Part shown: piece by piece, positions 5,532-25,542 of the stretch
Layout: each line of letters opens with the position of its first letter
Numbering within the stretch: the first letter of the stretch is position 1
NCBI GenBank assembly: GCA_016700375.1
Contig: CP065016.1
Coordinates: 570,001-602,000, forward strand
DNA: 32,000 nt
Source: Candidatus Saccharimonadota bacterium
GTDB lineage: Bacteria > Patescibacteriota > Saccharimonadia > Saccharimonadales > UBA4665
Direction: 5' to 3'
Position numbers and translations under genes: made by a program
Notes under the pieces: generated by a model
Told to the model about the DNA's origin: nothing
Databases searched by the model: none
The model's input: the letters and a program-made list of their open reading frames with translations, nothing else

Positions 5532-5918
5532 CTATGATTGCAGACCTACTGGCTGTATGTGCTTTGGAAGCCTCCTTGAAAGCTCCCTATCATTTGTGAA
5601 AAAACTGTTTGCCTGCAGGCTAATCGCAGTTGCCACGTGTATCGAATCACCTATTGTTAAGCCGTGAGTGCGTTGCAATTCACCAGCCTTCAGCGCAATA
5701 GTTGTGTCCATCGCAACAAATGTCATGTTTGGGATTTCAAGCAACGGAGTCGTAACCGCAGCAGACCCCGCCATAAACTCAGTCAATGTCAGGACAGACG
5801 TGACAAACGCACTCCCCTCCGCGCGTGCGCAATCCAGCATATCTGCCACCCGTATACTGTCTGAGCCATTATCCTCAAGAAGATAAATCAATATATTGGT
5901 ATCGAGATATATGGTCAT
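5532..5918 (-). CDS. vapC: PIN-domain toxin (VapC family)
   Basis: 128-aa ORF with the PIN signature positions: MTIYLDTNILIY (N-terminal Asp), TLTEF, IGDSIHVATA, FFTNDREL. It starts 3 nt after the stop of the upstream antitoxin ORF, the typical vapBC arrangement. Confidence 0.85.
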   Translation of the reverse strand: MTIYLDTNILIYLLEDNGSDSIRVADMLDCARAEGSAFVTSVLTLTEFMAGSAAVTTPLLEIPNMTFVAMDTTIALKAGELQRTHGLTIGDSIHVATAISLQANSFFTNDRELSRRLPKHIQPVGLQS

Positions 5919-12500: not shown

Positions 12501-15500
12501 GTTGTACTTGTTGACGTCTGTGGAGTAACACTAAGTGTGCCCTGAATAGTAGTAGTGGTGGCCACACGACCAATGGTGACGACACTGGCGTTCGTGGTGC
12601 CGATGGAGACGGTACCAGCCGTGGTGGTAGCCGTACCTGTGTCTATGACGATGTTACCAGAAGCACCAGCAGAAGCATTGCCGGTGGCTATGGTCGTATC
12701 GCTGGAAGTTGTACCAGCGCTGGAGGCGACGGTAACACCGCCTGCACCTTGCAGCGTGAGGAGACCAGCGTTCGTGCCCCAGGTGGCAGCGGCGGCACTG
12801 GTGAGGGTAAGGGCACCCGTGTTGGTGGTAAAGCTACTGGCAGCGTTCGAGGTGATGCTGACGGCACCGGCTGTAGCAGAGCCGATGGTGGTAGTACTAG
12901 TGCCAGTGGTGTTAATGTTGGTGGCGCCGAGGACGGTTGTTGTGCCAGTGATGGCATTGGTAGCAGAAGCGTTACCAATGGTAGTCGTAGCAGCACCAGT
13001 CATATTGATGTTAGTGGTACCAGTTAGGCTGGTGGTGCCACTTGTGACAGTGAAGTTCTTGCCAGTGACGACGGTGGTGTCACCATTGAGGGTTACGGCA
13101 CCAGTGCCGGTAGCAAACGTGCCGCTGCTGGCAGATTGATCAAAGTTGCCAGTACCAGCTGCGAAGGTAATGTTTTGGTTCGCGGCGATGCTGACGTTTT
13201 TGTTCAAGTTTATCTGGGTCGCATTTGTCGTCCCGATGTTCAGGGCAACAGCAGTGGCGGTGTCTACGAGGGGGGTGAGGACAGAGCTATCTGCCCGACC
13301 CGTACCGTCTATCCAGAAGTTAGCGCTCGTTTGAGCACTGGCATTTTGGTTCTGGATGCCGGTGGTGGAGGTCAGGCCACCGCAGTTGTTCTGGCTGGTA
13401 CATATATCTGCATTGGCGGTGAGGGCTGGGATACTGAGGGTATAGCTACCGGTTTGGGTGGCAGAGGCGAGGGTGACGGTGTTGCTATTGGCGGTAGTAG
13501 CAAACACTATCTTCCCAGCTACTGGGTTGGTACCACCATTGTAACTACCAAGTTCTAGTTCACCGTTTGTGGTGTCTACATTGAGGACGTTAACACCATT
13601 GGCGTTCTGGATGTTTACTGCAGCTGTAGAATTAGCCTGCTTGAAGCGGATGTCTAAGCCACCTTGAGTCATAGCCTGACCAGCGTAGATGGTACCCGTG
13701 CCAGCATCATTGATGGTGGCAGCATAGGTACCGTCGCCGGTGAAGGTGTTACCGGAGAGGTAGTTACTGGTAGCACCAGCGAGAAGGAGATTGATCGCGT
13801 AACAGGTCGTTGTACAGCTTGTGTCTGTGATAGTATTGCCGATAATCGTATTGTTGGATGAGGTGCCAATATAGATGCCGTTATTCGCCGTTGAACCACC
13901 ATTGTCTGCTAAGGTGTTGCCAGATACAGTATTTGCGTTAGATACGATAACGATACCTGCCGAATTCCCCCTCACACTGTTGCCATTCAGCGTATTATTA
14001 GCTGAGGAAGAGGAGACATATATACCGTAGCTTGTATTCCCTTGTATGGTATTGCTCGAGACGGTATTACTGCTCGATGAGGTAGTAATATATATGCCGT
14101 AGCTAGTGTTTCCCTGCGAAGTATTTCCGCTAATTGTGTTATTTGAAGAAGAGGTAGCTACAATTCCATACGAGGTATTCCCTTGTGCGGTATTGCCAGT
14201 TAGGGTGTTATTGTTGGAGGAAGATATATTGATTCCAATGCCATTGTTCCCCTGTGCGGTATTGCCAGTTAGGGTGTTATTGTTGGAGGAAGATACAAAG
14301 AAACCGTCAGTAAAGCTACCCTGTGCAGTGTTGCTAGTAAGTGTATTGTTGGACGAAGATGAGATAAGGGCGAAGCTATAGTAAGCGTTAGCCTGTGCGG
14401 TATTTCCCGCGAGCACATTGTTGCTAGAACTACGTAGACATATGCCGACACCGACTTGACAGTTGGAGCCACCTAGGCCAGCCCAGTTATTTGCCTGTAC
14501 ACCCGATATCCGAGCACCTTGCCGCGCGCTTGAGCCTGTCCCGCCACCCATGTTATTGAAATCAACACCCGCCATACCCGTGCCAACACCCATAGACTGA
14601 TTCGCATTGTTACCATCAAGCTTGAGGTCTCTGAGGGTGACATTGGTGCCGGTGGTGGTATCAGTGTTGACGATGGCACTAAAGTTGACGTTCAGAGCGT
14701 TAGGAGTGGTAATGAGTGTACCCTGCCCTATACCAGAGAGAGTGGTGTTGTTCGGAATGGAGATGGATGCATCTATGGTGTAGGTACCGGCCAGAAGCAC
14801 CACCTTCTTGCCTGCTCCGGCTGTGAGAGCTTGGTTTATCTGGACTTGGTCGCCATCATTCGCAGCACCAGTATTACCATCACCCACATAGTCAGCAGCC
14901 GCTTTATCTGCGTCAGAAGAGTTACTGGCAGCAACAAGAATAGCTTCGCTTCTATCTGCCTGCCACTTGCCATTGGCGTAGGTGAGGAGTTGTTTGGTGG
15001 TGGTGTCATAGTAGACCATGCCTTCGGTGGGACTTGCAGGACGGGAGGCGGTGTTACCGCCGGTGATGGTGATGGATTGGCCAGCGGCAAGAACAGTGTC
15101 TTGGTTGAGGTTGATGATGGTGGCATTGGTCGTCCCAATGTTCAGGGCAACAGCAGTGGCGGTGTCTATGAGGGGGGTAAGGATAGAGGTGTCAGCCCGA
15201 CCGGTGCCAGATATCCAGAAGTTAGCTGTTGTCTGTGCAGAGGCGTTTTGGTTTTGGATGCCGGTGGTTGAGGTAAGAGGCGTAGCGGAGCAAGCGGCAA
15301 GTTGGTTGCTCCCATTCTGGCATACAAACGTACTCCCTGCTGTACCACTCAGCGTAACAACCGTATTGCCCTGGATAGTAGTTGTAGTAGCAGCACGGCC
15401 TATAGTGACGCCGCTTGCGTTGGTGGTGCCAATCGATACTGTGCCAGCAGTGGTAGTAGCCGTGCCAGTGTCTATGACTATGTTGCCGCTGGCACCAGCG

Positions 15501-17386
15501 CTGGCATTACCCGTAGAGATAGTCGTGTCGCTTGATGTAGTACCGGCAGCACTGGTTACTGTAGTGCCGCCTGCTCCCTGCAGGGTCAGCAGACCAGCGT
15601 TGGTGCCCCAGGTGGCAGCAGCGGCACTGGTAAGGGTTAATGCCCCGGTGTTGGTCGTGAAGCTACTGGCAGCGTTCGAGGTGATGCTGACGGCACCAGC
15701 TGTAGCAGAGCCAATGGTAGTGGTAGCAGTCCCAGTGGTATTGATGTTGGTGGTGCCGGCAGCCGTGATGGTGCTACCAGTGAGATCAAGCGTGCCCGTA
15801 GTGTTACCAATGGTGGTATTGCCGGTACCCGTACCAAGGTTGGTAGCAGCAGCACCGGAGGTATTTATGTTGGTGGTGCCGGTAACAGCTATTGAGCTCC
15901 CGCTCTGAACACTAATAGTACCCGCTGCACTATTACCAATAGTTACAGCCCCTGTGCTTGTGCCTGTATTGATATTGGTATCAAAGTTACTATTTGCATT
16001 GAGGCTTATCGTACCGCCAGAAACACTACCGCCAGCACTAGCTGTTACAGTGCCGGTAAATGTTTTATCGCCAGCAAAAGTTTGCACCCCAGTGCTAACA
16101 AGCCCAGGACTGGTACCATCAGCCGTTTGCAAATATATACCGTTGCCCGATACGACTGCGCCATCGCCACTCTTTGTCTGACTATCTATAGTACCTATAA
16201 ATGTAACGCCATTACCTGCACCATCAATGTTCGTAGCGGTCCAAGCGCTACCATCATATATATATGTCTGTGCCTTGCCGGCTTGAATACTCACGCCATG
16301 CATTGTGAACGCAACACTACCGGTATTAAGTACATAGGAAAGGCGACCCGCCGTGCTACTCGTAGGCGCTGGTAGGCTCAATGTTCTCCCAGCTGTTGTC
16401 TGAGGTATAACAAATGTTGTATATGTATCTACCGTTGCAGCAGCCGTGCCAATTGCACCACTCGCCGCAAAGTCACTCAGCGTCGAACCGGTCAAAAGTG
16501 TCGAGCCATTGTTCGTAAACTGAGAGCCATTCGTAACGAACGGCCCCTGTACTGTTGTGGTGATAGTTGACTTACCTATGCTAATCGATGTCGCATTCGT
16601 CGTACCAATCCCCAGTGCGGCTGCCGTATTACTATCAATAAGCGGCGCTTGAAACGCCGTATCCGCCCTACCCGTTCCCGATAGCCAGAAGTTTGACGTT
16701 GTCTGTGCTGCCCCAAACTGGTTTTGAATAAATCCAGCATTTATTTGGGTCTCGGTGAGGAGGTTGTAGGTGCCGGCTGCTCCTTGGTCTTGGATGGTAA
16801 AGGTTTGGTTGCCGCTGGTTGGAGCAGCAATGCTGAGAGTGGCGAGGTTAGCTCCAGAGCTAGTGACGATCTGCCCCGCCGTCTTAGCATTAAACGCATA
16901 AGGCACTGCGGTGAGCTTGAGTCTTGGGGACATCTCTCCGTCCCAAGTAGGAGTAGCGGTTTGGGTGGTACCACCAACGTTCATGGTGAGGTAGAGCTGT
17001 TGGTCCCAGGGCATCGTACCGGGGAAAGCCGTTTGAGAACCAAGGTTAACGGTGACGTAGCCATTGGCTACTCGGACACGGTTGTCGTTGCCAGCAGTGA
17101 CACCGTTGCTATCGTAGTAGGTTTCAGTCCAGAGGAGTGTTCCCCCACTGGCAGCGTCGTAGAGCTTGAACTCGATGTTGTAGTAGCCGTCTGGGGCAAT
17201 GGCACCAGTCGCTGTTTCCAAACGAGCCTGGAAGTTCAGGTTGTCACTGGTGGCGGCATAGGCGGTCTGAGAACCGAGGCCAACACGCGTGAGTGACGCG
17301 GGGAGGAGCGCGCGCGTATAGGAAAACAGGGGGAGGATGAGCAAAAACAAAACCAAGACAACTTGGGTGCCGTACTTCGAGTTCAT
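6569..17386 (-). CDS. Giant (~3605 aa) secreted/surface protein: tail-fibre-like segments, three parallel beta-helix (pectate-lyase/tailspike-like) modules and a CBM4/9-like C-terminal region
   Basis: One uninterrupted ORF (track 6569..17608).
- Start: I place it at ATG 17386 (MNSKYGTQVVLVLFLLILPLFSY, a signal/TM segment). The upstream 74 codons are Arg/Ser/Leu-rich and do not look like protein.
- A motif recurs six times: IQNQNA(S)AQT..FWISGTGRAD..LTPLIDTATAVALNIGTTNAT.
- Each of three modules contains GMVYYDT.TKQLL.Y....KWQAD, DGDQVQINQALTAG.GKKVVLLAGTYTIDA.ISIPNNTTL.G.G.GTLIT (the N-terminal motif of pectate-lyase-3/tailspike folds), and about 6-12 PbH1-type repeats (SSSNNTLTGNTAQGNTNYGIYL).
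- The C-terminal part has a jelly-roll CBM-like pattern: ELASNGGAE....W......GEAGVKV...TTYTVSF....IYVDNLSF. Confidence 0.85.
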   Translation of the reverse strand: MNSKYGTQVVLVLFLLILPLFSYTRALLPASLTRVGLGSQTAYAATSDNLNFQARLETATGAIAPDGYYNIEFKLYDAASGGTLLWTETYYDSNGVTAGNDNRVRVANGYVTVNLGSQTAFPGTMPWDQQLYLTMNVGGTTQTATPTWDGEMSPRLKLTAVPYAFNAKTAGQIVTSSGANLATLSIAAPTSGNQTFTIQDQGAAGTYNLLTETQINAGFIQNQFGAAQTTSNFWLSGTGRADTAFQAPLIDSNTAAALGIGTTNATSISIGKSTITTTVQGPFVTNGSQFTNNGSTLLTGSTLSDFAASGAIGTAAATVDTYTTFVIPQTTAGRTLSLPAPTSSTAGRLSYVLNTGSVAFTMHGVSIQAGKAQTYIYDGSAWTATNIDGAGNGVTFIGTIDSQTKSGDGAVVSGNGIYLQTADGTSPGLVSTGVQTFAGDKTFTGTVTASAGGSVSGGTISLNANSNFDTNINTGTSTGAVTIGNSAAGTISVQSGSSIAVTGTTNINTSGAAATNLGTGTGNTTIGNTTGTLDLTGSTITAAGTTNINTTGTATTTIGSATAGAVSITSNAASSFTTNTGALTLTSAAAATWGTNAGLLTLQGAGGTTVTSAAGTTSSDTTISTGNASAGASGNIVIDTGTATTTAGTVSIGTTNASGVTIGRAATTTTIQGNTVVTLSGTAGSTFVCQNGSNQLAACSATPLTSTTGIQNQNASAQTTANFWISGTGRADTSILTPLIDTATAVALNIGTTNATIINLNQDTVLAAGQSITITGGNTASRPASPTEGMVYYDTTTKQLLTYANGKWQADRSEAILVAASNSSDADKAAADYVGDGNTGAANDGDQVQINQALTAGAGKKVVLLAGTYTIDASISIPNNTTLSGIGQGTLITTPNALNVNFSAIVNTDTTTGTNVTLRDLKLDGNNANQSMGVGTGMAGVDFNNMGGGTGSSARQGARISGVQANNWAGLGGSNCQVGVGICLRSSSNNVLAGNTAQANAYYSFALISSSSNNTLTSNTAQGSFTDGFFVSSSNNNTLTGNTAQGNNGIGINISSSNNNTLTGNTAQGNTSYGIVATSSSNNTISGNTSQGNTSYGIYITTSSSSNTVSSNTIQGNTSYGIYVSSSSANNTLNGNSVRGNSAGIVIVSNANTVSGNTLADNGGSTANNGIYIGTSSNNTIIGNTITDTSCTTTCYAINLLLAGATSNYLSGNTFTGDGTYAATINDAGTGTIYAGQAMTQGGLDIRFKQANSTAAVNIQNANGVNVLNVDTTNGELELGSYNGGTNPVAGKIVFATTANSNTVTLASATQTGSYTLSIPALTANADICTSQNNCGGLTSTTGIQNQNASAQTSANFWIDGTGRADSSVLTPLVDTATAVALNIGTTNATQINLNKNVSIAANQNITFAAGTGNFDQSASSGTFATGTGAVTLNGDTTVVTGKNFTVTSGTTSLTGTTNINMTGAATTTIGNASATNAITGTTTVLGATNINTTGTSTTTIGSATAGAVSITSNAASSFTTNTGALTLTSAAAATWGTNAGLLTLQGAGGVTVASSAGTTSSDTTIATGNASAGASGNIVIDTGTATTTAGTVSIGTTNASVVTIGRVATTTTIQGTLSVTPQTSTSTTLLCTNGGVVSTCDASVLAPTATNFIQNQNASAQTANSWISGTARADASVLTPLIDTATAVALNIGTTNATSINLNQDTVLAAGQSITITGGNTASRPAGTDGMVYYDTDTKQLLVYNGTTAKWQADKSDAILVAASDSSAKDKAAADYLGDGDTAAAGDGDQVQINQALTAGSGKKVVLLAGTYTIDAAISVPNNTTLAGVGTGTLITIPNSFNTHINAITNTTTGGNGTGITIRDLKLDGNKANQTSGTMYGVYFNGVGSGTGSSAVQGGTITNVKANNWRNSGIFLLSSSNNTITGNTTQGNTNYGIYLISSSNNTLTGNTTQGNTNYGIYLISSSHNTLTGNTAQGNTNYGIYLSSSSNNTLTGNTAQGNAWQGIYLSSSSNNTITGNTTQGNGTGIYLDSSSSNNTLTSNTAQGNGTGIYLDSSSSNNTLTSNTAQGNTWQGIYLSSSSNNTLTGNTAQGNTYGISLDSSSNNTLTGNTAQGNGGSGIYLISSSNNTVSGNKLHDNGGATANNGIHIDTSDSNTITGNDITDTSCTTTCYAINIVNSTSDTNYLADNNFSTTAGTATINDAGTGTIYAGQSMTQGGLDIRFKQANSTTAFNIQNANGISVLNIDTTNGELELGNYNGGTNPVAGKIVIANATNANTVTIQSAAQTGNYTASIPVLGANDTFCMETLGNCAPGATDFIQNQNASAQTADYWITGSARADTSVLTPTLDTATAVALNIGTTNATTINLNQDTVLAAGQSITITGGNTASRPAGTDGMVYYDTDTKQLLVYNGTTAKWQADKSDAILVAASDSSAKDKAAADYLGDGDTAAAGDGDQVEINQALTAGSGKKVVLLAGTYTIDAAISVPNNTTLAGVGTGTLITIPNSFNTHINAITNTTTGGNGTGITIRDLKLDGNKANQTSGTMRGVYFDGVGSGTGSSAVQGGTITNVKANNWRNDGIYLSFSSSNNTITGNTAQGNTNYGIYLSSSSSNNTITGNTAQGNTNYGIYLSSSSNNTLTSNTTQGNNYGIGLNSSSNNTITGNTTQGNTYGITLSSSSNNTISGNTAQGNTYGIYLSSSSSNNTVSGNKIHDNGGATANNGMYINASDSNTITGNSITDTSCTTTCYAINIANSTSDTNYLADNNFSTTAGTATINDAGTGTIYAGQSMTQGGLDIRFRQANSTTAFNIQNANGISVLNIDTTNGELELGNYNGGTNPVAGKIVIANATNANTVTIQSAAQTGNYTLDIPALAGNATICTNNSTTACGNFIQNQNAAQQASSNFWLSGTGRADTSILTPLLDTATATVLNIGANNASSTTIGKAAGTAAINLSASTINLGIATTATVVQGAAQTTNNTNGSQLTIKGSAGLGTGNGGTLLLSGGDAGGTGVLGLVNLNPTAFTGTSQNCTVATCSITAATVNSNSTALVNNTYAGSTVTLADPTLTTAGRVMYVTNSGTQDMTLSVNGGGQGNTIALKPNTTATMFWNGVDWTAAGASSATDLQAAYNNTQTAAGGAEIVLRSTADSPAGTGGLTVRNNSGVPISGGLLEIQTSIGTNLFSVNSYGTELASNGGAETAGGSATTFPASTWSAQSGATVTRSVTSGEYQTGEAGVKVVTGASNLHGVRNQLTANPVASTTYTVSFTAASSTAGQNTTPIEVIYSPDNGTTLTNLCQGYGGGYTTSRPLSNSTNYNWTKVTCTITTTGAAVTTPLLIIRQTDATARTIYVDNLSFIRNDSTTRPASVQMGGGNTGGQVTLFTLDRSSTAPLVSNGDDRYLGSMYFDTTLGNIQCYEADGWGACGSAPDNIITYTPEYTGAVLNGTGVGTMTADFCGNGGGLSVNTGFCASGEARNYYRWTSPQASDQTYSIYVSYRLPSTFKEFESGTTSLISLVDNTSNASVKYAIFKKTSTGGLTSCSADATMSGTVSTWNSTTPTTDLGTGACHTGGATPFAAGDTMVVRITVSAKSNASAYVENLTFRYSNK
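8789..10433 (-). repeat. Intragenic module C of the giant protein
   Basis: Anchor 8789 (GTAGTTACCTGT...) corresponds to 10514, and anchor 10421 (GTTCTGGATGAAG) corresponds to 12419. The PbH1 array lies at ~9200-9660. Confidence 0.85.
10514..12431 (-). repeat. Intragenic module B of the giant protein
   Basis: Long stretches differ from module C only by scattered substitutions, for example 11651-11900 versus 9661-9900. Module B is ~273 bp longer because its PbH1 array (10930-11650) has extra units. Confidence 0.85.
13439..15262 (-). repeat. Intragenic module A of the giant protein (most diverged copy)
   Basis: Colinear with modules B and C at protein level (IQNQNASAQTTANFWISGTGRAD ... TQTGSYTLSIP). 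The DNA is clearly diverged. The PbH1 array lies at ~13860-14470. Confidence 0.75.
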
Positions 17387-17945
17387 GTGTAGTTTCTTCC
17401 CGAGAAGCGAAGAAAGACGTATCGACATACGGCGCAACGAGCATCGTAGGGAAAAACTGCGCAGGAACCGAAGAAGCCATGCTGGCGGCCAGCTGTGCTG
17501 GGCGGAGGCGTGGCTGGTACGGCGGCTAAGGACGACAAAGGCCCTCTTGGCTGAGAGCCAGAGGGTGCATGCGAAGAACGCTTGCGCTGTACGTTTTAGT
17601 TTGAACATGTGTTTTGTAAAGTGTTTGTGTTGGTTTCTCGGTTTTTTTGAGATACCAATCTTTGTTTCGGATTTTGCCTAGTTTTTGGTTTTGGCCTATC
17701 CTGCACAGAAGTATGCCCCATACGAACCACCTGTTACAAGAGAAAAGTGAAAGAAAGTTATGCAAAAAAATGTATTCAATTTTGACAAATCAACAGATGT
17801 TTTTCGTAGTGTTTTATACTACAATTATTCATTACCCCTGTTATTTTCATGAAAATAGAGCAGAATTGATTCTGATTCAGCATGCAAATTTGTAGCAATA
17901 TTCACTACGAATAATATATTCTCCTAAAGTTATCCACAGGTACAT

Positions 17946-18464: not shown

Positions 18465-18944
18465 ATGTCACAGCCAAAATCAGCAACAGATTTCATCCTA
18501 CGCGGCCTATTCCTTCCTCTTTCGCGGCAAAACCTATTGCTCAGCTTTAAGCCCAGCCAGTTCTTCTACGAACTCTCGCGGGTCAGCGGTTACCCCGAAA
18601 AGACTCTGCGGGACACCATGAGTCGAGCCACTCGCGATGGCTACATTGTCATGGGGGATACTATTCCGCAGCTTACCGCAAAAGGCCTGAAGAAGGTTCA
18701 GCCTTTCGTAGCGGAAAAGCTTCCAGAGAACGGCCAGCTACTCGTTGTTTTTGACATACCAGAAGAACGCAAAATGATGCGACATGAATTCCGGCGGTTG
18801 CTCAAACGCCTCGATTTCCAATACGTCCAGCAGAGCGTCTGGATGACAGATCTCGATCACAGAAAAGTACTAGCTGAAGCGGTAAAGAAACTAGAGCTAA
18901 AAGATTGCGTCAAAGTGTACGAAGCCGCTCCCATAAAACTATAG
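18465..18944 (+). CDS. Small PaaX-family-like regulator: N-terminal winged HTH plus Cas2-like (ferredoxin-fold) domain
   Basis: 159 aa. The N-terminal half has a wHTH-like pattern (FFYELSRVSGYPEKTLRDTMSRATRDGYIV). The C-terminal half, ENGQLLVVFDIPEERKMMRHEFRRLLKRLDFQYVQQSVWM, matches the hallmark of the PaaX central/Cas2-like domain: hydrophobic strand, (F/Y)DIPE, R..R, L...GF, Q.SVW. Confidence 0.6.
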   Translation: MSQPKSATDFILRGLFLPLSRQNLLLSFKPSQFFYELSRVSGYPEKTLRDTMSRATRDGYIVMGDTIPQLTAKGLKKVQPFVAEKLPENGQLLVVFDIPEERKMMRHEFRRLLKRLDFQYVQQSVWMTDLDHRKVLAEAVKKLELKDCVKVYEAAPIKL

Positions 18945-18946
18945 TC

Positions 18947-18981
18947 ACTACACTTTTGTTACGGCCGTAACAAAAGTGTAG
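18947..18981. repeat. Second copy of the palindrome, 3 nt after the stop of the PaaX-like gene
   Basis: CACTACACTTTTGTTACGGCCGTAACAAAAGTGTAG (18946-18981) is identical to 18420-18455. No U-tract follows on either strand. Confidence 0.9.
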
Positions 18982-19220
18982 CAGGCAGAGTGTTGTTTGT
19001 GGACTTGGGTTGTAGAAGCGTGGAAACCGTAAAAGCAGCGAGTCAGTAGCTAGGGTCGCCGGAGTGCTTCCTTTAGATTATCAAGTTCGATGGCACATAG
19101 ACTGGGCACGGGGCAGCAAACTACGACCATTGGAGCCCGCAACTGCCGTATAGGGCTCATAGCATCAGAGCAGTCCAGTGGTTAGGTCCGCTCGATGCTA
19201 TGAACTGTCCTTGGGGGTTT

Positions 19221-22106
19221 CTAGGCCTTTTTGAGCGCGATGGTCAGGCGCAGGCCTTCGATGTTCGCTTCGGTACAAAAAGCGCCTGTGCCGGGCTCTA
19301 CAAAGGCCTGGGTTAACGTTTCTGCCTGAATCGTCCGCTCGTGCTCAGCAAGCGCAGCCATGAGTTCTTTATCTTCCGCAGTCAGCAGCAAGACAATCCT
19401 GTCATCCACCTGCAGCCCAGCCTGCTTACGGGCGTTTTGCACCGCTCGTACTACCTCGCGGGCCATGCCCTCTCTCTTGAGTTCTGGTGTTATATTTTTG
19501 TCAACAGTAACAGCCAGTTTCACTTCATTGACGTGTTTAACTTCTTTCACATTCACTTCATCGGCAATGATTGCCTCGTAGTACTCACCGAGTTTGTCGC
19601 TACCGTATGTCAGGGCTGCTAGGGGCTGTCGAACCTTCACCTGGGGCTCTGTTTCTGTCTTAAACATGCGTGCAGCCAAGCCCTGCTCTATGACACTCCT
19701 GGTCTGTGCCATACGTTCTAGTACTGTCTCGTCTACGGCACCAGGCTCTGGCCAGTCAAGCAAATGCACACTCTCGCCGCCAGTCAGTTTCTGGTACAGT
19801 TCTTCTGCTAGAAACGGCGTAAACGGTGCGAGCAGCAGACTAAGGCGCGCGAGCACATAATGCAAGGTGCGATATGCATCATGCTTGTCGGCATCGTCGT
19901 CGCTTTTCCAAAAACGCCTACGGCTGCGACGGACATACCAGTTGCTGGCATCGTCCAAAAACGGCAAGACGCCACTGAGGGCATCGGGCAAATTATAACC
20001 GTCTAAATCAGTAGTCATTTGTGCTTGCAGTTGATGTAAACGTGACACCACCCATGTATCAAGCGGGTTGGTTAACTCCTTAGAAGGATCTTCGAGCGAG
20101 TCATTCCACTCCCAGCCATCCACCTCGGCATACATTGTAAAAAAGTCATACATGTTCCACACCATCGCCAGTTTGCGCTGGATATCTTGCACATCCTTGT
20201 CTTGCAAGCTAAAGTCTTCACCACTCATAACGGGCGAGCTCAGCAGCAAAAATCGTAGTGCATCGGCACTGTATTCATCCATGAGTATGTTTGGATCGGT
20301 GTAGTTACCATAGCTTTTACTCATTTTGCGGCCATCGTTGCCGGCGAGAGTACCCGTCACGATACAGTTTGAAAACGAGTTCTTCTCGAACAGCCCCACC
20401 GATACGGCGTGTAGGTAGTAAAACCACGCCCGCACCTGACCGACGTATTCGGCTATATAATCACCCGGGAAACTAGCCTCAAACTTCTCTTTGTTCTCAA
20501 ACGGATAGTGGAACTGCGCAAATGGCATGCTACCACTCTCAAACCAACAGTCCATGACCTTGTCGATACGCGTGTAGTGCACACCATCTAGGTCAAACTC
20601 TACGTCATCAATCCATGGGCGGTGGTAATCATCGAGCTCAACACCGCTCAGCTCTTTCAGCTCGGCGTAACTACCCACGACCTTCACGCGCTCCTTCCCG
20701 TCCGCATCCGTGCCCTTCCACACCGGCATAGCGGTAGCCCAGAAGCGGTCGCGGCTGAGGTTCCAGTCCGGCGCACTCTCGACAGTTTTGGCAAAGCGAC
20801 CATGTTTGACATGCCCCGGGAACCAATTGATGTTTTCGTTCTGCTCCAGCATGTCCTGGCGTTGCCCGGCAATGTCCATGAACCAGCTTGGGTGCGCTCG
20901 GTACATGAGCTTCGTACCGCAGCGGTGACAGTGCGGGTATTCGTGGCGAACGTACTCTATTTTGAGCGCCTTGCCTTCAGCCAGCAACGTCTTAGCAATA
21001 TCTTTGTTCACGTCCCATATGTTCTGGCCTTCCCACGCGCCTTCTGTGTAGTTCCCGTTTTCGTCCACAATTGAGACAAGCGGAATGTTGTGCTCTTTAC
21101 ATAGAACGTAGTCTTCCTCACCATATGCAGGGGCTTCATGTACTATTCCCGTACCGTCATCGGCCGTCACAAAGTGGGCGTCAAGCACCCGGTGCGCACC
21201 TTCGCCGCGGTGTTCAAAGAGTGGCTCATAGGCTTTTCCAACCAGTTCTGACCCCTGTATCTTTTTTACAACGTTGTAAGCCAATGGCTGATGCCTCTCG
21301 TCGGTCATCACCCTGGCAATCGCCGCCGTTGCTACATAGAAGCGCTTGCCAGCGTGCTCGAGCAGTGAGTACTCTGTGTCACCCTTTACTGCCACTGCAA
21401 CGTTCGCTGGAAGCGTCCAGGGTGTTGTAGTCCATGCTAAGAGAAACTCGTCAGAATCTGCCAATTTGAAGTACGCGTAGATGCTTGGGTCGGTATCTTG
21501 CTGGTAGCTATTGTCCATTGCCACCTCGGCTTTAGAAATAGGCGTGGCGTCACGCGTGCAGTACATGAGCACCTTTTCGCCTTCATATATTTTGCCCTTT
21601 TCGTACAGTTCCTTAAACGCCCACCAGACCGATTCCATGAATTCTTTATCCATGGTTTTGTATGCACCTTTGAAGTCCACCCAGCGGCCAATCCGGTCGA
21701 TGGTACTTTCCCACAAGTCACCCGTTTGCACCATATTGTCTCGGCACGTGGTAATGTACTCCTCGAGTGATATCTTGGTCCCGATATCTCGCTTATCTTG
21801 TATGCCCAGCTTTTTCTCGGTAAATACTTCAGCCGGCAGGCCATGACAGTCCCAGCCCCAAACGCGTTCAACCCGGCGCCCCTTCATGGTCCAGTAGCGT
21901 GGCACCGCGTCTTTCGCAACGCTAGAAAGCAATGTACCGTGGTGTGGCACGCCCGTGATAAACGGCGGCCCATCGTAAAACACATATGCACCCTCTTTTG
22001 GCCGTTGCTCAACCGACTTCTCGAATGTACGGTTCTCTTTCCAGTACCGCACCAGGTCCTTCTCGTACTCTATAGCCTTCCGCCGTGTATTTGCTTTGAA
22101 TTTCAT
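19221..22106 (-). CDS. ileS: Isoleucyl-tRNA synthetase, eukaryote-like (type 2), paralog 1
   Basis: 961 aa.
- FYDGPPFITGVPHHGTLLSS is the class I HIGH region in the type-2 IleRS context.
- WTTTPWTLPAN and GTGIVHEAPAYGEEDY are the CP1 editing motifs.
- MDCWFESGSMPFAQ and GRKMSKSYGN (KMSKS) are present.
- The start codon overlaps the SGNH stop (ATGA). Confidence 0.9.
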   Translation of the reverse strand: MKFKANTRRKAIEYEKDLVRYWKENRTFEKSVEQRPKEGAYVFYDGPPFITGVPHHGTLLSSVAKDAVPRYWTMKGRRVERVWGWDCHGLPAEVFTEKKLGIQDKRDIGTKISLEEYITTCRDNMVQTGDLWESTIDRIGRWVDFKGAYKTMDKEFMESVWWAFKELYEKGKIYEGEKVLMYCTRDATPISKAEVAMDNSYQQDTDPSIYAYFKLADSDEFLLAWTTTPWTLPANVAVAVKGDTEYSLLEHAGKRFYVATAAIARVMTDERHQPLAYNVVKKIQGSELVGKAYEPLFEHRGEGAHRVLDAHFVTADDGTGIVHEAPAYGEEDYVLCKEHNIPLVSIVDENGNYTEGAWEGQNIWDVNKDIAKTLLAEGKALKIEYVRHEYPHCHRCGTKLMYRAHPSWFMDIAGQRQDMLEQNENINWFPGHVKHGRFAKTVESAPDWNLSRDRFWATAMPVWKGTDADGKERVKVVGSYAELKELSGVELDDYHRPWIDDVEFDLDGVHYTRIDKVMDCWFESGSMPFAQFHYPFENKEKFEASFPGDYIAEYVGQVRAWFYYLHAVSVGLFEKNSFSNCIVTGTLAGNDGRKMSKSYGNYTDPNILMDEYSADALRFLLLSSPVMSGEDFSLQDKDVQDIQRKLAMVWNMYDFFTMYAEVDGWEWNDSLEDPSKELTNPLDTWVVSRLHQLQAQMTTDLDGYNLPDALSGVLPFLDDASNWYVRRSRRRFWKSDDDADKHDAYRTLHYVLARLSLLLAPFTPFLAEELYQKLTGGESVHLLDWPEPGAVDETVLERMAQTRSVIEQGLAARMFKTETEPQVKVRQPLAALTYGSDKLGEYYEAIIADEVNVKEVKHVNEVKLAVTVDKNITPELKREGMAREVVRAVQNARKQAGLQVDDRIVLLLTAEDKELMAALAEHERTIQAETLTQAFVEPGTGAFCTEANIEGLRLTIALKKA

Positions 22107-22696
22107 ATTCCCATCTCCGTTAATTTAGTTTTCATCAGCTTACTCATTTCTTCATGTCCCTCTGGAGAAAAATGCACCCCGTCACTCGAGAGGCTTATCT
22201 CACCCGGAATAATTACTTGTTCGCCGGACCCTTCAAGCAACGCAACCAGCGCCTGCTGTTTCTCTTCGCTGCCCATAAAAGCCTGGCTACGCCTGAAGTT
22301 TGGTGGAGCAATATACATAATGCTTGCAGGCGCAACGTATACATCCTCACTCAGTTGAGCCACCGCGTCTCTGTACCACAATAAGTCATCATATATTTGG
22401 TCTGGCGTGAAGCTGTACTTATCTTTGCAGTCATTTGTGCCAAGTGCGATGATGACGAGGTTAAGCGGCGAAGCTTGCCTGCAGATGACTTCAAATGAGT
22501 CTTTTCCATTTTTACTTTGGTCAGCATGATCGTAGCCGCCCGCAATCCTGCCTGGGAGCCCGGCGGGCTGCACCTCATGGCCATCGCCAAGTTGTTTTTG
22601 AAGCTGGTTCACCCACCGAGCCTGAGCAGAATACCGTTTCAGGTTATCATCCTGCCCCCAAACATTTGAATCGCCATATATTAATATATTTTTCAT
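22103..22696 (-). CDS. SGNH/GDSL-family hydrolase (esterase/lipase-like)
   Basis: All four SGNH blocks are present: block I IYGDSNVWG, block II GLPGR, block III LGTNDC, block V DGVHFSPEGH. ATGA overlaps at both ends couple it to the GNAT and ileS genes. Confidence 0.8.
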   Translation of the reverse strand: MKNILIYGDSNVWGQDDNLKRYSAQARWVNQLQKQLGDGHEVQPAGLPGRIAGGYDHADQSKNGKDSFEVICRQASPLNLVIIALGTNDCKDKYSFTPDQIYDDLLWYRDAVAQLSEDVYVAPASIMYIAPPNFRRSQAFMGSEEKQQALVALLEGSGEQVIIPGEISLSSDGVHFSPEGHEEMSKLMKTKLTEMGI

Positions 22697-23223
22697 ATTC
22701 TGGGCTCCCTTCTCATTTTGATTGATGGCATCTTATCAGCATGCATATAGTCAGATCCTGAAACTTTTTTAAAGCCTTGCTTCTCATAAAACCGCTTGGC
22801 GCGTTCATTGTAATCAACGACCACTAGGTCAACTACCCGTTTCGCGTCCCAAAATGCATCAGCGTGCAGCATCAGCTCTGCAGCAAGGCCTGTCCCTTGG
22901 TACTCACGGGCAATGTACAGCGCACCCAATTCCTGATCTTCCTTGTGGCGAGTCGCATGCACAAACCCAACGACTGCGTCGTTTACAACAGCGACCTCGT
23001 ATAGCTGATCCGGGTCGGCTATAAAGCCTGTTACTAGTTCGCGACTTTCCTTAAGCTTTTCGGGTGAATCCCAGCTTTCCCATCGCTCGCGCACCCATGA
23101 CTCTGGCACACCAGCGTTGTCATTTGGATAGGTGTCGAGCCAAGACGCGGCATGAAACTTACGTATAGCGTAGGTATCGTCGGGTGTCGCGGTACGGATT
23201 GCTGGCTTAGCTTCTTCACTCAT
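22693..23223 (-). CDS. GNAT-family N-acetyltransferase, copy 1
   Basis: 176 aa. It has the acetyl-CoA motif A region (ALYIAREYQGTGLAAELM) and the C-terminal NERAKRFYEKQGF. GGAG lies 6 nt upstream of the ATG. It is the first gene after the T-box leader. Confidence 0.8.
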   Translation of the reverse strand: MSEEAKPAIRTATPDDTYAIRKFHAASWLDTYPNDNAGVPESWVRERWESWDSPEKLKESRELVTGFIADPDQLYEVAVVNDAVVGFVHATRHKEDQELGALYIAREYQGTGLAAELMLHADAFWDAKRVVDLVVVDYNERAKRFYEKQGFKKVSGSDYMHADKMPSIKMRREPRI

Positions 23224-23437
23224 TTTTTCTCCAAATAAAAATCACCTCTTTTAGCTGCCAGATCCCGGGTTATTCGGGAGGTACCATCTGGCTTCCAAAA
23301 GAAGTGATTCTTTTAGCACTTAGTTGCCGGTCTGACGGGCCGAACCGTTGGAATCTACTTTCTGGCTACGGCCAGATTTCTCTCCACTGCTTCGTGGTTG
23401 ATAGCCACTAATCCGGCAAAGCCGAAACGCATTTAAT
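23224..23437 (-). promoter_or_regulatory. T-box riboswitch leader, Ile specifier (AUC), copy 1
   Basis: Minus-strand RNA, 5' to 3':
- Short hairpin GUGG-CUAUCAA-CCAC (23408-23394). AUC followed by A sits in a 7-nt anticodon-loop-like loop.
- Stem II-like helix UCUGGC-CGUA-GCCAGA with a GAGAAA/AAGUAGA (S-turn-like) internal loop.
- Possible IIA/B pseudoknot.
- Stem III: CUAAAAG-AAUCACUU-CUUUUGG.
- Antiterminator: GCCAGA-[UGGUACC]-UCCCG-AAUAACC-CGGGA-UCUGGC (23292-23257). This is the A1 / 7-nt bulge / A2 layout and the conserved UGGNACC.
- CUAAAAGAGGUGAUU then pairs back to AAUCACUUCUUUU and is followed by UUUUUAUUU. Confidence 0.75.
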
Positions 23438-23443
23438 ACTGCA

Positions 23444-23473
23444 AGTATACGCCCTCCCACCCACCTAGCACAA
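23444..23473 (-). promoter_or_regulatory. Candidate promoter of operon 1
   Basis: The minus strand reads TTGTGC (23473-23468), 18 nt, TATACT (23449-23444). The spacer is G-tract rich (GGTGGGTGGGAGGG). Confidence 0.4.
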
Positions 23474-23497
23474 GCTCCACTCTTATCCAACGCAAAA

Positions 23498-24846
23498 TGA
23501 GCCTGAACCGCCTATCAGGTTCTAAAATACTATGAGCCTGAAATATCGACAGCTGGCATAGCATGGGAGGATGACTATTACTATGCAGCAACACACGCTA
23601 CCAACTATTGAAGAACTCAGACAGTTTGTCTCAGGCACTCAGTCACTTGACCTTACAATCGTACATAAGCAAGAGGCTTATGCCTGGTTACAGCAACTGG
23701 TCGTTCGTCTTGACTACCAGCACTTGGGCAAAAAAGACAAAGGCGTCGTTCGAGAATACGCCATAGCCGTCACGGGGTACAGCCGTGCCCAGGTGACTCG
23801 GCTTATTGGACAGTACCTGCGGACTGGCTGTATTGCGCTGGAGCCAGTGAACATGAGAAACCAGTTTGCACTGCGCTACACGCGTGAAGACATTGGGCTG
23901 CTAGCAGAGCTGGATGATGCCCATGATCGGCTCAGTGGCAAAGCGGCAAAAGTTCTAGCCCAACGAGCCTTTGTGACATTTGGCGATGCACGCTACGAAC
24001 GACTTAGCGCAATCTCCGTCAGCCACATATACAATCTACGTGGCACCGTAACATACCGTAACCAAAGCCATACGTTCACCAAAACGCAAGCAACAACAAT
24101 AGCTATTGGCGAGCGCCGCAAACCACGCCCGAACGGTCAACCTGGCTTCATCCGTATAGATACTGTCCACCAGGGAGATAAGGACAAAGAAAAGGGTGTG
24201 TACCACATCAATCTGGTTGATGAAGTTACCCAGTGGGAGGTGGTGGTCGCGGTCGAGAGAATCACTGAGCGTTACATGCTGCCAGCCCTCGAAGCAGCTT
24301 TGGTGCTGTTCCCATTTGTCATTGTAGAATTCCACGCCGACAATGGCTCGGAGTACATCAACAAACAAGTTGCTGCCCTCCTGAAAGCAATGCTCATCAA
24401 GCTCAGTAAGTCTCGAGCCTACCAAAGCGGAGACAATGGATTGGTTGAAACCAAGAATGGTAGCATTATCCGAAAAGCCCTAGGCTATGCGCATATACCC
24501 AGGGAATATGCTCCGGATATTAACAGCTGGTACTGTACGTGGTTTGTGCCCTACCTGAACTTCCACCGACCCTGCGGTTACCGCATAACGAGCGTTGACT
24601 CAAAGACGGGCAAGAGGACACATCGCTACCCAGTCAATGGGTACATGGTACCGTACGAGAAGCTGAAGTCATTGCCAGACGCCAAACAATACCTGAAGAC
24701 AGGCAGCAGTTTTGAGAAACTAGACGAAGTGGCGTATGCTGAAAGTGATACAGCTTGGGCGATAGCCATGAACAAAGCAAAAGACCAGTTGTTGAAGACA
24801 CTATATACAAAACGCTAGCTGTTTGTTTCTGGTAGCTTCAGGCTCA
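23498..24846 (+). mobile_element. IS element copy 1 (DDE/rve-type transposase, TG...CA ends)
   Basis: The inverted repeats AATGAGCCTGAA (23496-23507) and TTCAGGCTCATT (24837-24848) give 5'-TG...CA-3' termini. An extra internal ATGAGCCTGAA lies at 23532-23542. The element encloses a single intact transposase ORF. No flanking target-site duplication was recognised. The near-identical block shared with copy 2 is larger (23345-24868). Confidence 0.7.
23571..24818 (+). CDS. DDE transposase with integrase (rve) catalytic core and N-terminal HTH
   Basis: 415 aa. Candidate D-D-E triad: FIRIDTVHQG, EFHADNGSEYIN and DNGLVETKNGSIIRK, with a spacing typical of retroviral-integrase-type transposases. GGGAGG lies immediately upstream. 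The IS family is not assigned. Confidence 0.8.
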   Translation: MTITMQQHTLPTIEELRQFVSGTQSLDLTIVHKQEAYAWLQQLVVRLDYQHLGKKDKGVVREYAIAVTGYSRAQVTRLIGQYLRTGCIALEPVNMRNQFALRYTREDIGLLAELDDAHDRLSGKAAKVLAQRAFVTFGDARYERLSAISVSHIYNLRGTVTYRNQSHTFTKTQATTIAIGERRKPRPNGQPGFIRIDTVHQGDKDKEKGVYHINLVDEVTQWEVVVAVERITERYMLPALEAALVLFPFVIVEFHADNGSEYINKQVAALLKAMLIKLSKSRAYQSGDNGLVETKNGSIIRKALGYAHIPREYAPDINSWYCTWFVPYLNFHRPCGYRITSVDSKTGKRTHRYPVNGYMVPYEKLKSLPDAKQYLKTGSSFEKLDEVAYAESDTAWAIAMNKAKDQLLKTLYTKR

Positions 24847-24870
24847 TTCTTGGATTGGAATATACTGCCT

Positions 24871-25542
24871 TCAGGCGTTTCGGCAAGTCTCCGCAAATGC
24901 CTTATAGATGAGTGGCCCCGTGTCATCAGACTCTGGATGCCACTGAACGCCGTATATATTCCCATAACTCATAGCTTCAATCACACTGTCATGGGCTTTT
25001 GCGCAAAGCTTAAAATGCAACGGAAGTTTGGCAACTCCTTGATGGTGCCGTGACGCAACAGTAGCCTTATTGCCACGCATTAGACCTAGAAAGTCAGCAC
25101 AAAGGTCAATTTCGTGCTGAACGCCCATGTGCCGAACCGCACCGCCAACTTCTTGGGCAATATCTTGGTAAAGCTCACCACCATAGTGAACTGCCAGCAG
25201 CTGCATGCCATAACAAACACCTAAAATTGGCTTATCCAATGCGCTAAACATATCAATGAGGCTGCGCTCCCAAGCAACTCGCTCCTGAGGTTCAGTCGCC
25301 GTATGAAGCTCATTGCCGCCATACACCTCCGCTGGGATATCTTCACCTCCAGAAATTACTAGACCATCACAAAGTTCAAACGCTTCTTCCGCGCTCATGT
25401 CTGGCGCTAGGATAATAGGTATTGCTCCCGAAGCAGCAATTGCAAGCGTATAATCTCGGCGTAAGTACAGACTAGCCCTCGATGCAGGTAATTTTATGCC
25501 CTCATCAAATGCAGGAGTAACACCAATAACCGGTTTCTTCAT
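24871..25542 (-). CDS. Class I glutamine amidotransferase of the peptidase C26 / gamma-glutamyl hydrolase (PuuD-like) family
   Basis: 223 aa. It has the nucleophile elbow PILGVCYGMQLL, then SRHHQGV and GVQWHPE (the His/Glu of the triad). The ATGA overlap with the ileS-2 stop makes it the last gene of operon 2. Confidence 0.8.
   Translation of the reverse strand: MKKPVIGVTPAFDEGIKLPASRASLYLRRDYTLAIAASGAIPIILAPDMSAEEAFELCDGLVISGGEDIPAEVYGGNELHTATEPQERVAWERSLIDMFSALDKPILGVCYGMQLLAVHYGGELYQDIAQEVGGAVRHMGVQHEIDLCADFLGLMRGNKATVASRHHQGVAKLPLHFKLCAKAHDSVIEAMSYGNIYGVQWHPESDDTGPLIYKAFAETCRNA

Follow-up and report, generated by a model that had tools for sequence, protein, structure and literature searches.

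The 32,000-nucleotide (nt) stretch of the Candidatus Saccharimonadota bacterium genome analyzed here (contig CP065016.1, positions 570,001–602,000; hereafter the window) contains an RNA leader on its minus strand (read 23437→23224), preceding an operon of a GNAT acetyltransferase gene, a GDSL hydrolase gene and ileS, the gene for isoleucyl-tRNA synthetase (IleRS). We propose that this leader is an isoleucine-specific T-box that controls the GNAT–GDSL–ileS operon by transcription attenuation, through an exchange of strands at Stem III and with a non-canonical expression platform. To this reading, built on the comparison of sequences, we assign a probability of about 0.65. In the standard model, terminator and antiterminator compete for one strand and the tRNA protects the helix to which it is bound. 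Here some 80 genomes conserve a design that would leave the tRNA-bound helix untouched, the competition having been moved to Stem III. A previous, sequence-only reading of the window had listed the elements of this leader, and all of them are found where it placed them; its assignments of a T-box, of isoleucine specificity, of a truncated Stem I and of an odd terminator topology survive comparative testing. The feature it described is real, with the correction that it is read 5′ to 3′ on the minus strand and that a second, diverged copy lies at 29684–29483 of that strand. Coordinates are collected in table 1.

How widely is this leader distributed? A genome scan with IleRS yielded 80 loci, nearly all of them in metagenome-assembled genomes of Candidatus Saccharibacteria/Saccharimonadales (individual relatives are cited below by our L numbers). 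A covariance model of the 3′ domain built in this analysis, R1, matches (E <= 5e-4) 79 of 82 related loci, exactly once each and invariably a short distance ahead of the ileS operon, as well as both window copies, with 122 bits for copy 1 and 96.9 bits for copy 2. For the majority of genomes ileS is the first gene after the leader; the GNAT gene (and the GDSL gene) stand between the two in the window and in its nearest relatives.

With what does the strand that precedes the U-tract pair? A canonical overlapping terminator can be ruled out, since the 3′ strands of the antiterminator helices A1 and A2 (23267–23257) have no complementarity to the downstream sequence. The 5′ strand of the OFF helix is not the 3′ half of the antiterminator; the segment 23309–23295, comprising the loop and the 3′ strand of Stem III, is used instead. 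The resulting long-range helix, AAUCACUUCUUUU/AAAAGAGGUGAUU, extends to 15 base pairs (bp; 23309–23295 with 23254–23240) and encloses the antiterminator. When 61 3′ domains are aligned by MAFFT without reference to structure, changes on both sides occur at 13 of the 15 pairs (for example AU 24/GC 21, CG 25/UA 19 and UA 23/CG 17), and 14 of the 15 pairs covary on an alignment fitted to the rival structure, that containing Stem III. The helix is 83–88% paired, against at most 52% when the partner strand is slid, and none of 500 shuffles reaches the observed values. Insertions and deletions in the unmodelled downstream strand blurred a three-way test of covariation made column by column on the model-fitted alignment. 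Per-sequence folding was used instead, and it gives the enclosing helix a median length of 17 bp, as against 3.4 bp with the downstream strand shuffled.

If the enclosing helix takes the 3′ strand of Stem III, is Stem III itself genuine? It is 86–93% paired on a neutral alignment, shows double changes at seven of its seven pairs (alignment A4) and has a median z of −2.9 relative to shuffles. Its compensatory variants include CUAAAAG/CUUUUGG, CUUUUGAG/CUCAAAGG, CUUCAGAG/CUCAGAAG and CUGAAAG/CUUUCGG. Stem III reaches 4 bp or more in 70 leaders, and in 65 of these the enclosing helix uses at least 3 nt of the Stem III 3′ strand. The suggestion that CUUUUGG chooses between two copies of CUAAAAG is thus borne out, for Stem III and the enclosing helix are both conserved by compensatory change despite their common strand. 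The surroundings of Stem III conform to the published discriminator motif of T-boxes, 5′-RRRxG-Stem III-AA-3′ before A1 (PMC7583486); here it takes the form AAGUG, a Stem III of 7 bp and AA, of which AAG.G and AA are nearly invariant across the family.

The antiterminator is present in the minimum-energy fold of all 79 distinct leaders. Across these 79 sequences A1 is 99% paired and covaries at four of its six pairs, while A2 is 94–95% paired and covaries at all five. Between the two helices lies a 7-nt bulge of the UGGN+ACC type, and the segment GAUGGUACC is nearly invariant.

Both alternatives were folded for copy 1, as the sequence-only reading had suggested. The ON structure has a computed energy of −21.3 kcal/mol and the OFF structure one of −36.1 kcal/mol, and a transcript that stops short of the 3′ strand forms Stem III and the antiterminator. 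The fold of the 206-nt leader has a z of −4.63 against dinucleotide shuffles, none of 200 being as good. Every one of the 81 copies has a U-tract right after the enclosing helix, with a mean of 6.1 U per 8 nt and at least five U in 80 of the 81, where the background frequency of T is 0.24; the tract is there even in L023 and L072, in which the 5′ strand of Stem III is not rich in A. The composite hairpin of −36.1 kcal/mol followed by a U-tract has the anatomy of an intrinsic terminator. A simple promoter and terminator scan gave no information on the window, since it cannot recognize a composite hairpin whose ‘loop’ is 60 nt long.

How might such a switch operate? As the RNA is transcribed, the first structures to form would be Stem III and the stable A1/A2 hairpin. 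The emerging strand CUAAAAGAGGUGAUU would zip outward from the base of A1, displace the 5′ strand of Stem III and then pair with the Stem III loop. The product would be a long composite hairpin beside the U-tract, at which RNA polymerase would terminate. Uncharged tRNA-Ile would place its anticodon, GAU, on AUC and its ACCA end on UGGU. Charged tRNA would be unable to lock Stem III, and the swap would go ahead. The tRNA-binding helix would at no point be unfolded, the switch working on Stem III and the linker. According to single-molecule work on the ileS T-box of Mycobacterium tuberculosis, tRNA that is charged remains paired to the bulge, but the linker comes undocked and Stem III leaves the antisequestrator (PMC12647780). 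A platform that attacks Stem III would respond to just this change.

Several points weigh against this proposal. That tRNA binds and that transcription terminates are both things that we infer, and the general use of intrinsic termination in Saccharibacteria is an assumption. The part of the helix next to the U-tract is AU-rich (AAUCAC/GUGAUU, two G–C pairs in six) and weaker than the base of a typical intrinsic terminator. According to the review literature (PMC7583486), fast capture of the tRNA by a transcriptional T-box generally requires an elbow-binding platform on a long Stem I, and this leader has no such Stem I. The A2 pair beside the bulge (23279/23263; columns 123/165 of alignment A4), described elsewhere as a conserved G·U wobble that senses the aminoacyl group, is U–A here and not this canonical steric sensor; among 79 leaders it is G·U in 32, U–A in 21 including both window copies, G–C in 16 and A–U in seven. 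The OFF hairpin continues to expose the bulge, so simple base-pair competition cannot explain how the tRNA would block the swap, and because it is insufficient the argument leans on tertiary docking as described for other T-boxes. Copy 1, moreover, is a chimera, its 5′ half having been recently overwritten by that of copy 2. Finally, some leaders lack Stem III, and its swap cannot therefore be the whole story.

These last leaders form a minimal subclass of five members (L031:3883–3995, L040:3858–3963, L046:3904–4006, L057:3892–4006 and L059:3908–4006) in which ...UAAGUC-CC-AA leads directly into A1. The strand after the AAG purines (for example GUCCC) pairs with GGGAC in a 5-bp GC helix, after which comes the U-tract. 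According to the published view, an antiterminator without Stem III does not bind tRNA appreciably. Because these five relatives keep a GUCCC-type helix and a U-tract, the general principle may be competition for the linker/Stem III module and not for A1/A2. We put at even odds the broader proposition that the leaders constitute an unrecognized class of T-box in Saccharibacteria, in which the helix that binds the tRNA 3′ end is permanent and the minimal subclass has a bare linker strand of 5 nt acting in place of Stem III.

Could the same T-box act upon translation, alone or in addition? The OFF hairpin, ending 7 nt before the Shine–Dalgarno (SD) sequence, might occlude the landing site of the 30S subunit, or the pyrimidine-rich strand CUUCUUUU might serve as an anti-SD, with the U-rich stretch as a translational enhancer or standby site. 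The known T-boxes with an ultrashort Stem I are all described as translational (PMC7583486), the end of the helix lies 7–20 nt from the SD, and the base of the helix is, as noted above, AU-rich for a terminator. The sequence-only reading had kept translational control in view, having recognized in the downstream strand, AAGAGGUGAU, a near-perfect anti-16S (SD-like) sequence. Such a 3′ strand, GAGGUGAU, is indeed present in the window and its closest relatives, but it is not a feature of the family: elsewhere the strand reads AAGUGAU, AGAUGAC, AAAUGGC or UGAGGUUU, unconserved in sequence and covarying freely with the Stem III loop. In the window 17 nt separate it from the ATG, and a stop in frame (TGA) intervenes, while a separate GGAG stands 5 nt from the ATG. 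Distance, intervening stop and non-conservation together rule out an SD role for GAGGUGAU. Across the family an AAAGGAG-type SD lies 7–20 nt downstream of the enclosing helix, so that in all copies the true SD and the start codon are outside the conserved structure. A run of U abutting the helix, which at least 80 of the 81 copies have, is what defines an intrinsic terminator anatomically. Since the U-tract is universal, the SD is outside the helix and the SD-likeness is unconserved, we favor intrinsic termination and regard the translational alternative as unlikely.

A second alternative is that the enclosing helix is static, a closing stem of the discriminator in both states, with regulation exerted by some other, undetected structure, or that Stem III never forms in this lineage. 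The helix is thermodynamically dominant (−36.1 vs −21.3 kcal/mol), Stem III is wholly absent from the five minimal leaders, and the helix would presumably lie stacked beneath A1, in the manner of Stem III in solved T-box structures. However, the complementarity of the Stem III 5′ strand is kept through radically different sequences, as that of a helix that never formed would not be; the A1/A2 3′ strands offer no downstream complementarity from which a canonical terminator could be made; and the conserved U-tract would be left with no role. We consider a static helix improbable.

What of the 5′ domain, which would read the anticodon? A 4-bp stem with a 7-nt loop that carries AUC at loop positions 3–5 is found in 66 of the 67 genuine leaders. 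Among the 63 that were aligned the stem is 100% paired (its second pair being CG in 39 and UA in 24), AUC is present in every one and the A that follows it in 62. The specifier codon thus suits the regulated gene, that of IleRS, and precedes a conserved purine. The loop consensus, YUAUCAM, places U at the equivalent of tRNA U33 and A at the equivalent of position 37, and the earlier label ‘anticodon-loop-like’ is therefore apt.

The remainder of Stem I is short. Its base helix shows compensatory changes among relatives (UGC/GCA, GGC/GCC, UCC/GGA, CUAC/GUAG), as does the optional hairpin 1 (CGGC/GCCG to CUAGC/GCUAG). GA-type flanks (GAUUA/GAA) are present, and in the arrangement AUGA ... GAA they appear to resemble the GA/K-turn motif at the base of canonical Stem I. 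Missing altogether is the long Stem I whose AG bulge and distal loop make up the platform for the tRNA elbow: Rfam aligns 35 nt where the T-box model, RF00230, has 90, about 55 nt being missing. There is no space for a long Stem I because −10-like boxes lie 7–25 nt upstream of the Stem I base. In L013, L022, L032, L049 and L052 an extra conserved hairpin, GUUAC-NNNN-GUAAC, is seen some 15–35 nt upstream of the Stem I base and after the −10-like box; the window does not have it.

Stem II with its S-turn and the IIA/B pseudoknot, an optional module typical of non-glycine T-boxes, are both aligned by Rfam. The closing helix of Stem II is 90.8% paired, with double changes (UA 31/CG 30; GC 44/AU 7/UA 4), and its motifs AAGAA and AGUAGA are almost invariant across the family. 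Stem IIA is 88% paired across the aligned leaders. The register of IIB is variable, and covariation between its loop and the downstream partner is visible by eye (L082 GAUC/GAUC, L069 GAGU/ACUC, L075 UUUGA/UCAAA).

Why, then, is the leader not annotated as a T-box? RF00230 is the only Rfam family matched at copy 1 (23436–23256, minus strand), and the match spans the full model. At 33.5 bits it is significant only by the local E-value (8.8e-6); it stays below the gathering score of 93 bits, at which Rfam yields no match anywhere in the window and which none of 13 further relatives scanned reaches. This shortfall we ascribe to the approximately 55 nt missing from Stem I. In E-value mode RF00230 gives correctly placed matches in four of six relatives, at 22.6–35.2 bits. 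When the whole window was scanned by E-value, copy 1 was lost and only a spurious match to a viral frameshift element was returned; in the copy 2 region the T-box was not reported even at E <= 10, the sole match being a spurious miRNA.

Copy 2 is identical to copy 1 in its 5′ half, while the 3′ halves have diverged by compensatory changes: in copy 2, A1 is AUCGGA/UCCGAU and Stem III is CUAAAAG/CUUUUAG. Its minimum-energy fold has the same enclosing architecture. In L001–L006, on contigs with an identical GNAT gene, the converse holds. There the 3′ half is the same as that of copy 1 and the 5′ half differs, again by compensation (hairpin 1 CGGC/GCCG to CUAGC/GCUAG; specifier stem GUGG/CCAC to GCGG/CCGC). 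A 1.54-kb unit is present at 23329–24868 and 29582–31120 with at least 99.9% identity. It contains an integrase gene of the rve family (23571–24818, plus strand), frameshifted in the second unit by a 1-nt insertion or deletion at 23730/29983 that leaves an open reading frame (ORF) at 30045–31070, and in both leaders it takes in the promoter, Stem I, Stem II and the first part of IIA. Because its left edge falls inside the leader (~23329/29582), the decoding domain of copy 1 has recently been overwritten by that of copy 2, in a gene conversion; the orthologues L001–L007 retain a different 5′ half. An insertion sequence (IS) terminal repeat or a transposase leader as the source of the structure is ruled out, since orthologues without the IS carry the same element. 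That both window leaders are decaying relics, disabled by a rearrangement that replaced half of each, is the least probable reading: although the integrase unit ends within both leaders, one integrase copy is frameshifted and copy 2 is invisible to Rfam, both leaders keep all the conserved elements and score 122 and 97 bits by R1, the exchanged half is a bona fide isoleucine decoding domain that fits the family consensus, the changes between the copies in A1 and Stem III are compensatory and not disruptive, and the IS-free orthologous leaders L001–L007 have an identical 3′ half.

Does the bulge match the tRNA that it would bind? The sequence-only reading had paired UGGU with an ACCA-3′ end, that is, with A as discriminator base. 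There is no tRNA gene in the window, and a search over all fetched loci found a single tRNA-Ile, in L066, leaving the UGGC, UGGA and UGGG leaders without a tRNA match. This tRNA-Ile(GAU) gene (882–955, minus strand) ends in ...GGCUCC-A-CCA, and the leader of the same genome has UGGU. The pair is consistent with UGGU:ACCA pairing, with the caveat that the anticodon stem of the gene carries two mismatches (CAUAC/CUACG), which could be an assembly error or the mark of an unusual tRNA or a pseudogene.

The fourth nucleotide of the bulge is variable among ileS leaders of Saccharibacteria: it is UGGA in L039 and L050, UGGC in L059, L071, L078 and L080, and UGGG in L081. Another variant, UGGUAUC, occurs in L083. 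The variation in UGGN predicts, from the leader sequences, lineage-specific changes of base 73 in tRNA-Ile. Given these leaders, and given that the tRNA-Ile of M. tuberculosis ends in GCCA, the discriminator base of tRNA-Ile is probably variable between lineages.

Table 1. Coordinates in the window of the two ileS leaders, their structural elements and the operons that they precede.
Feature	Position	Strand	Details
Copy 1, entire Ile T-box leader from the Stem I base through the U-tract	23233..23431	−	Basis: sequence, RF00230, R1 model, fold z
Truncated Stem I	23388..23431	−	Base helix UGC 23431–23429/GCA 23390–23388; specifier hairpin 23408–23394
Stem I hairpin 1 (optional), CGGC-UUU-GCCG	23424–23414	−
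Specifier hairpin, GUGG-CUAUCAA-CCAC	23394..23408	−	AUC 23402–23400; conserved A 23399
Stem II	23349..23386	−	S-turn motifs GAGAAA ... AAGUAGA; apical hairpin UCUGGC-CGUA-GCCAGA; Rfam alignment
Stem IIA and IIB pseudoknot partner	23328..23348	−	IIA ACGG/CCGU; loop CGG with CCG 23330–23328
Purine string, Stem III and AA	23293..23321	−	AAGUG 23321–23317; AA 23294–23293
Stem III	CUAAAAG 23316–23310; CUUUUGG 23301–23295	−	Loop 23309–23302
Antiterminator	23257..23292	−	A1 GCCAGA 23292–23287/UCUGGC 23262–23257; bulge UGGUACC 23286–23280; A2 UCCCG 23279–23275/CGGGA 23267–23263
Enclosing (terminator) helix, 3′ strand CUAAAAGAGGUGAUU	23240..23254	−	Pairs with 23309–23295 (Stem III loop and 3′ strand)
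U-tract UUUUUAUUU	23233..23241	−	Abuts the enclosing helix
Shine–Dalgarno and GNAT start	23221..23232	−	GGAG 23232–23229; ATG 23223–23221; outside the helix
Regulated operon 1	19221..23223	−	GNAT acetyltransferase 22693–23223; GDSL hydrolase 22103–22696; IleRS (961 amino acids) 19221–22106; Pfam, NCBIfam
Paralogous Ile T-box leader, copy 2	29483..29684	−	Bulge UGGUACC 29539–29533; enclosing 3′ strand ~29506–29490; U-tract 29491–29483
Regulated operon 2	24871..29473	−	GNAT 28946–29473; CdiA_C-like ORF (125 amino acids) 28534–28911; IleRS (965 amino acids) 25539–28436; C26 glutamine amidotransferase 24871–25542; Pfam

The window thus holds two ileS operons in tandem on the minus strand (19221–23437 and 24871–29684, with a period of ~6.3 kb), each with its own isoleucine T-box and a leading GNAT gene. 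The ORFs of operon 1 overlap by 4 nt. Both class I synthetases are isoleucine-tRNA ligases by the NCBIfam equivalog ileS, TIGR00392, scoring 784 bits (operon 1) and 788 bits (operon 2) against a cutoff of 621. The two IleRS are 77% identical and the two GNAT proteins 66%. For a reduced genome that keeps two T-box-controlled IleRS genes, one possibility is that one of the copies confers resistance to an inhibitor. Both resemble enzymes of the MupA/MupB type, and they score far below the MupA/MupB cutoffs. We take the IleRS of both Actinobacteria and the lineage of the window to be of type 2 (eukaryote-like).

What else surrounds these operons? A GNAT gene is the first cistron of both (22693–23223 and 28946–29473), and the existence of the NCBIfam entry NF040702 implies that the association of GNAT with IleRS occurs elsewhere also as a fusion. 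Between the GNAT gene and ileS of operon 2 lies an ORF of 125 amino acids (28534–28911, minus strand) with a CdiA C-terminal toxin domain (PF18451, E 9e-15). The members of PF18451 are presumably tRNA nucleases, and a tRNase-like gene under the control of tRNA-Ile would be curious. Farther away is an ORF of 3679 amino acids (6569–17608, minus strand) built of NosD/right-handed beta-helix repeats, near which are a PIN-domain gene (5532–5918), a gene for ribosomal protein L21 (18002–18319) and a Cas2/PaaX_M-like gene (18465–18944). Between the last of these and the convergent ileS of operon 1 is a perfect 17-bp hairpin, TGCTACACTTTTGTTAC-GGCC-GTAACAAAAGTGTAGTG (18946–18983), a candidate that may act as a bidirectional terminator; its U tail is weak.

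T-boxes in Saccharibacteria, Patescibacteria or the candidate phyla radiation are the subject of no report found by a full-text search of the literature. The short-Stem-I model of TBDB was searched within Actinobacteria only, and reviews describe only terminators that overlap the antiterminator. What would be new here, judging from the conserved pairings, is the combination of two features, a Stem I of ultrashort form and a platform of the transcription type by which the antiterminator is enclosed. If this is true, T-box regulation extends to the Candidate Phyla Radiation (Patescibacteria), and a whole class of T-boxes has been missed by annotation based on Rfam. The binding of the tRNA end would be naturally separated from switching, and a transcriptional T-box would be able to work without the Stem I elbow platform, contradicting the generalization that a long Stem I is needed. 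The system would also afford a direct test between rigid steric rejection and the undocking of linker and Stem III as models of how aminoacylation is sensed; with the linker and Stem III of the M. tuberculosis ileS T-box as the element that responds to charging, it would, if confirmed, be a simple natural system for the study of such sensing. A lineage-specific variant has some practical interest as well, T-boxes being targets for antibiotics and Saccharibacteria being epibionts of the human oral cavity.

How does this leader compare with T-boxes already known? Sherwood, Grundy and Henkin reportedly described, in 2015, actinobacterial ileS T-boxes with a short or ultrashort Stem I in M. tuberculosis, Mycobacterium smegmatis and Nocardia farcinica. 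A co-crystal structure of an actinobacterial ileS T-box is available (PDB 6UFG, as cited in PMC12647780). The likeness to these T-boxes drawn by the sequence-only reading holds at the level of published descriptions (PMC7583486, PMC12647780), on which our comparison rests. The regulated gene, ileS, is the same, and so is a Stem I without the distal elbow-binding platform. A Stem II S-turn and IIA/B pseudoknot reinforce codon–anticodon pairing, and the discriminator is made up of linker purines, Stem III and a bulged helix with UGGN. The actinobacterial switch, however, is translational. Its sequestrator is described as excluding the antisequestrator, many pairs of which must break, whereas the OFF helix of the leader described here spares A1/A2, consumes Stem III and has a conserved U-tract behind it, the SD being placed beyond the helix. 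Moreover the tRNA-Ile of M. tuberculosis ends in GCCA, while the bulge UGGU here matches ACCA.

The staphylococcal glyS T-box with its stem Sa provides a precedent, since its 3′ domain too has been remodelled in one lineage with the core bulge that senses the tRNA retained. As described (PMC4574755, PMC9177973), stem Sa is an insertion within the antiterminator/terminator domain and not a terminator that encloses the antiterminator.

With the canonical leaders of RF00230, of the Bacillus subtilis tyrS/glyQS type, the window leader would share the logic of tRNA-dependent antitermination. It has the same specifier followed by a purine, the same UGGNACC bulge between A1 and A2, and the same hairpin plus U-tract as OFF signal. 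Canonical leaders have a long Stem I that includes the AG bulge and a distal-loop platform, and their specifier is in an internal loop; here about 55 nt are absent and the specifier is in a terminal loop. In the canonical arrangement the 3′ strands of A1 and A2 are themselves the 5′ strand of the terminator, and terminator and antiterminator overlap (PMC7583486). In the saccharibacterial leader, by contrast, the 5′ strand of the proposed terminator is the loop and 3′ strand of Stem III, and the antiterminator would sit unchanged atop the terminator.

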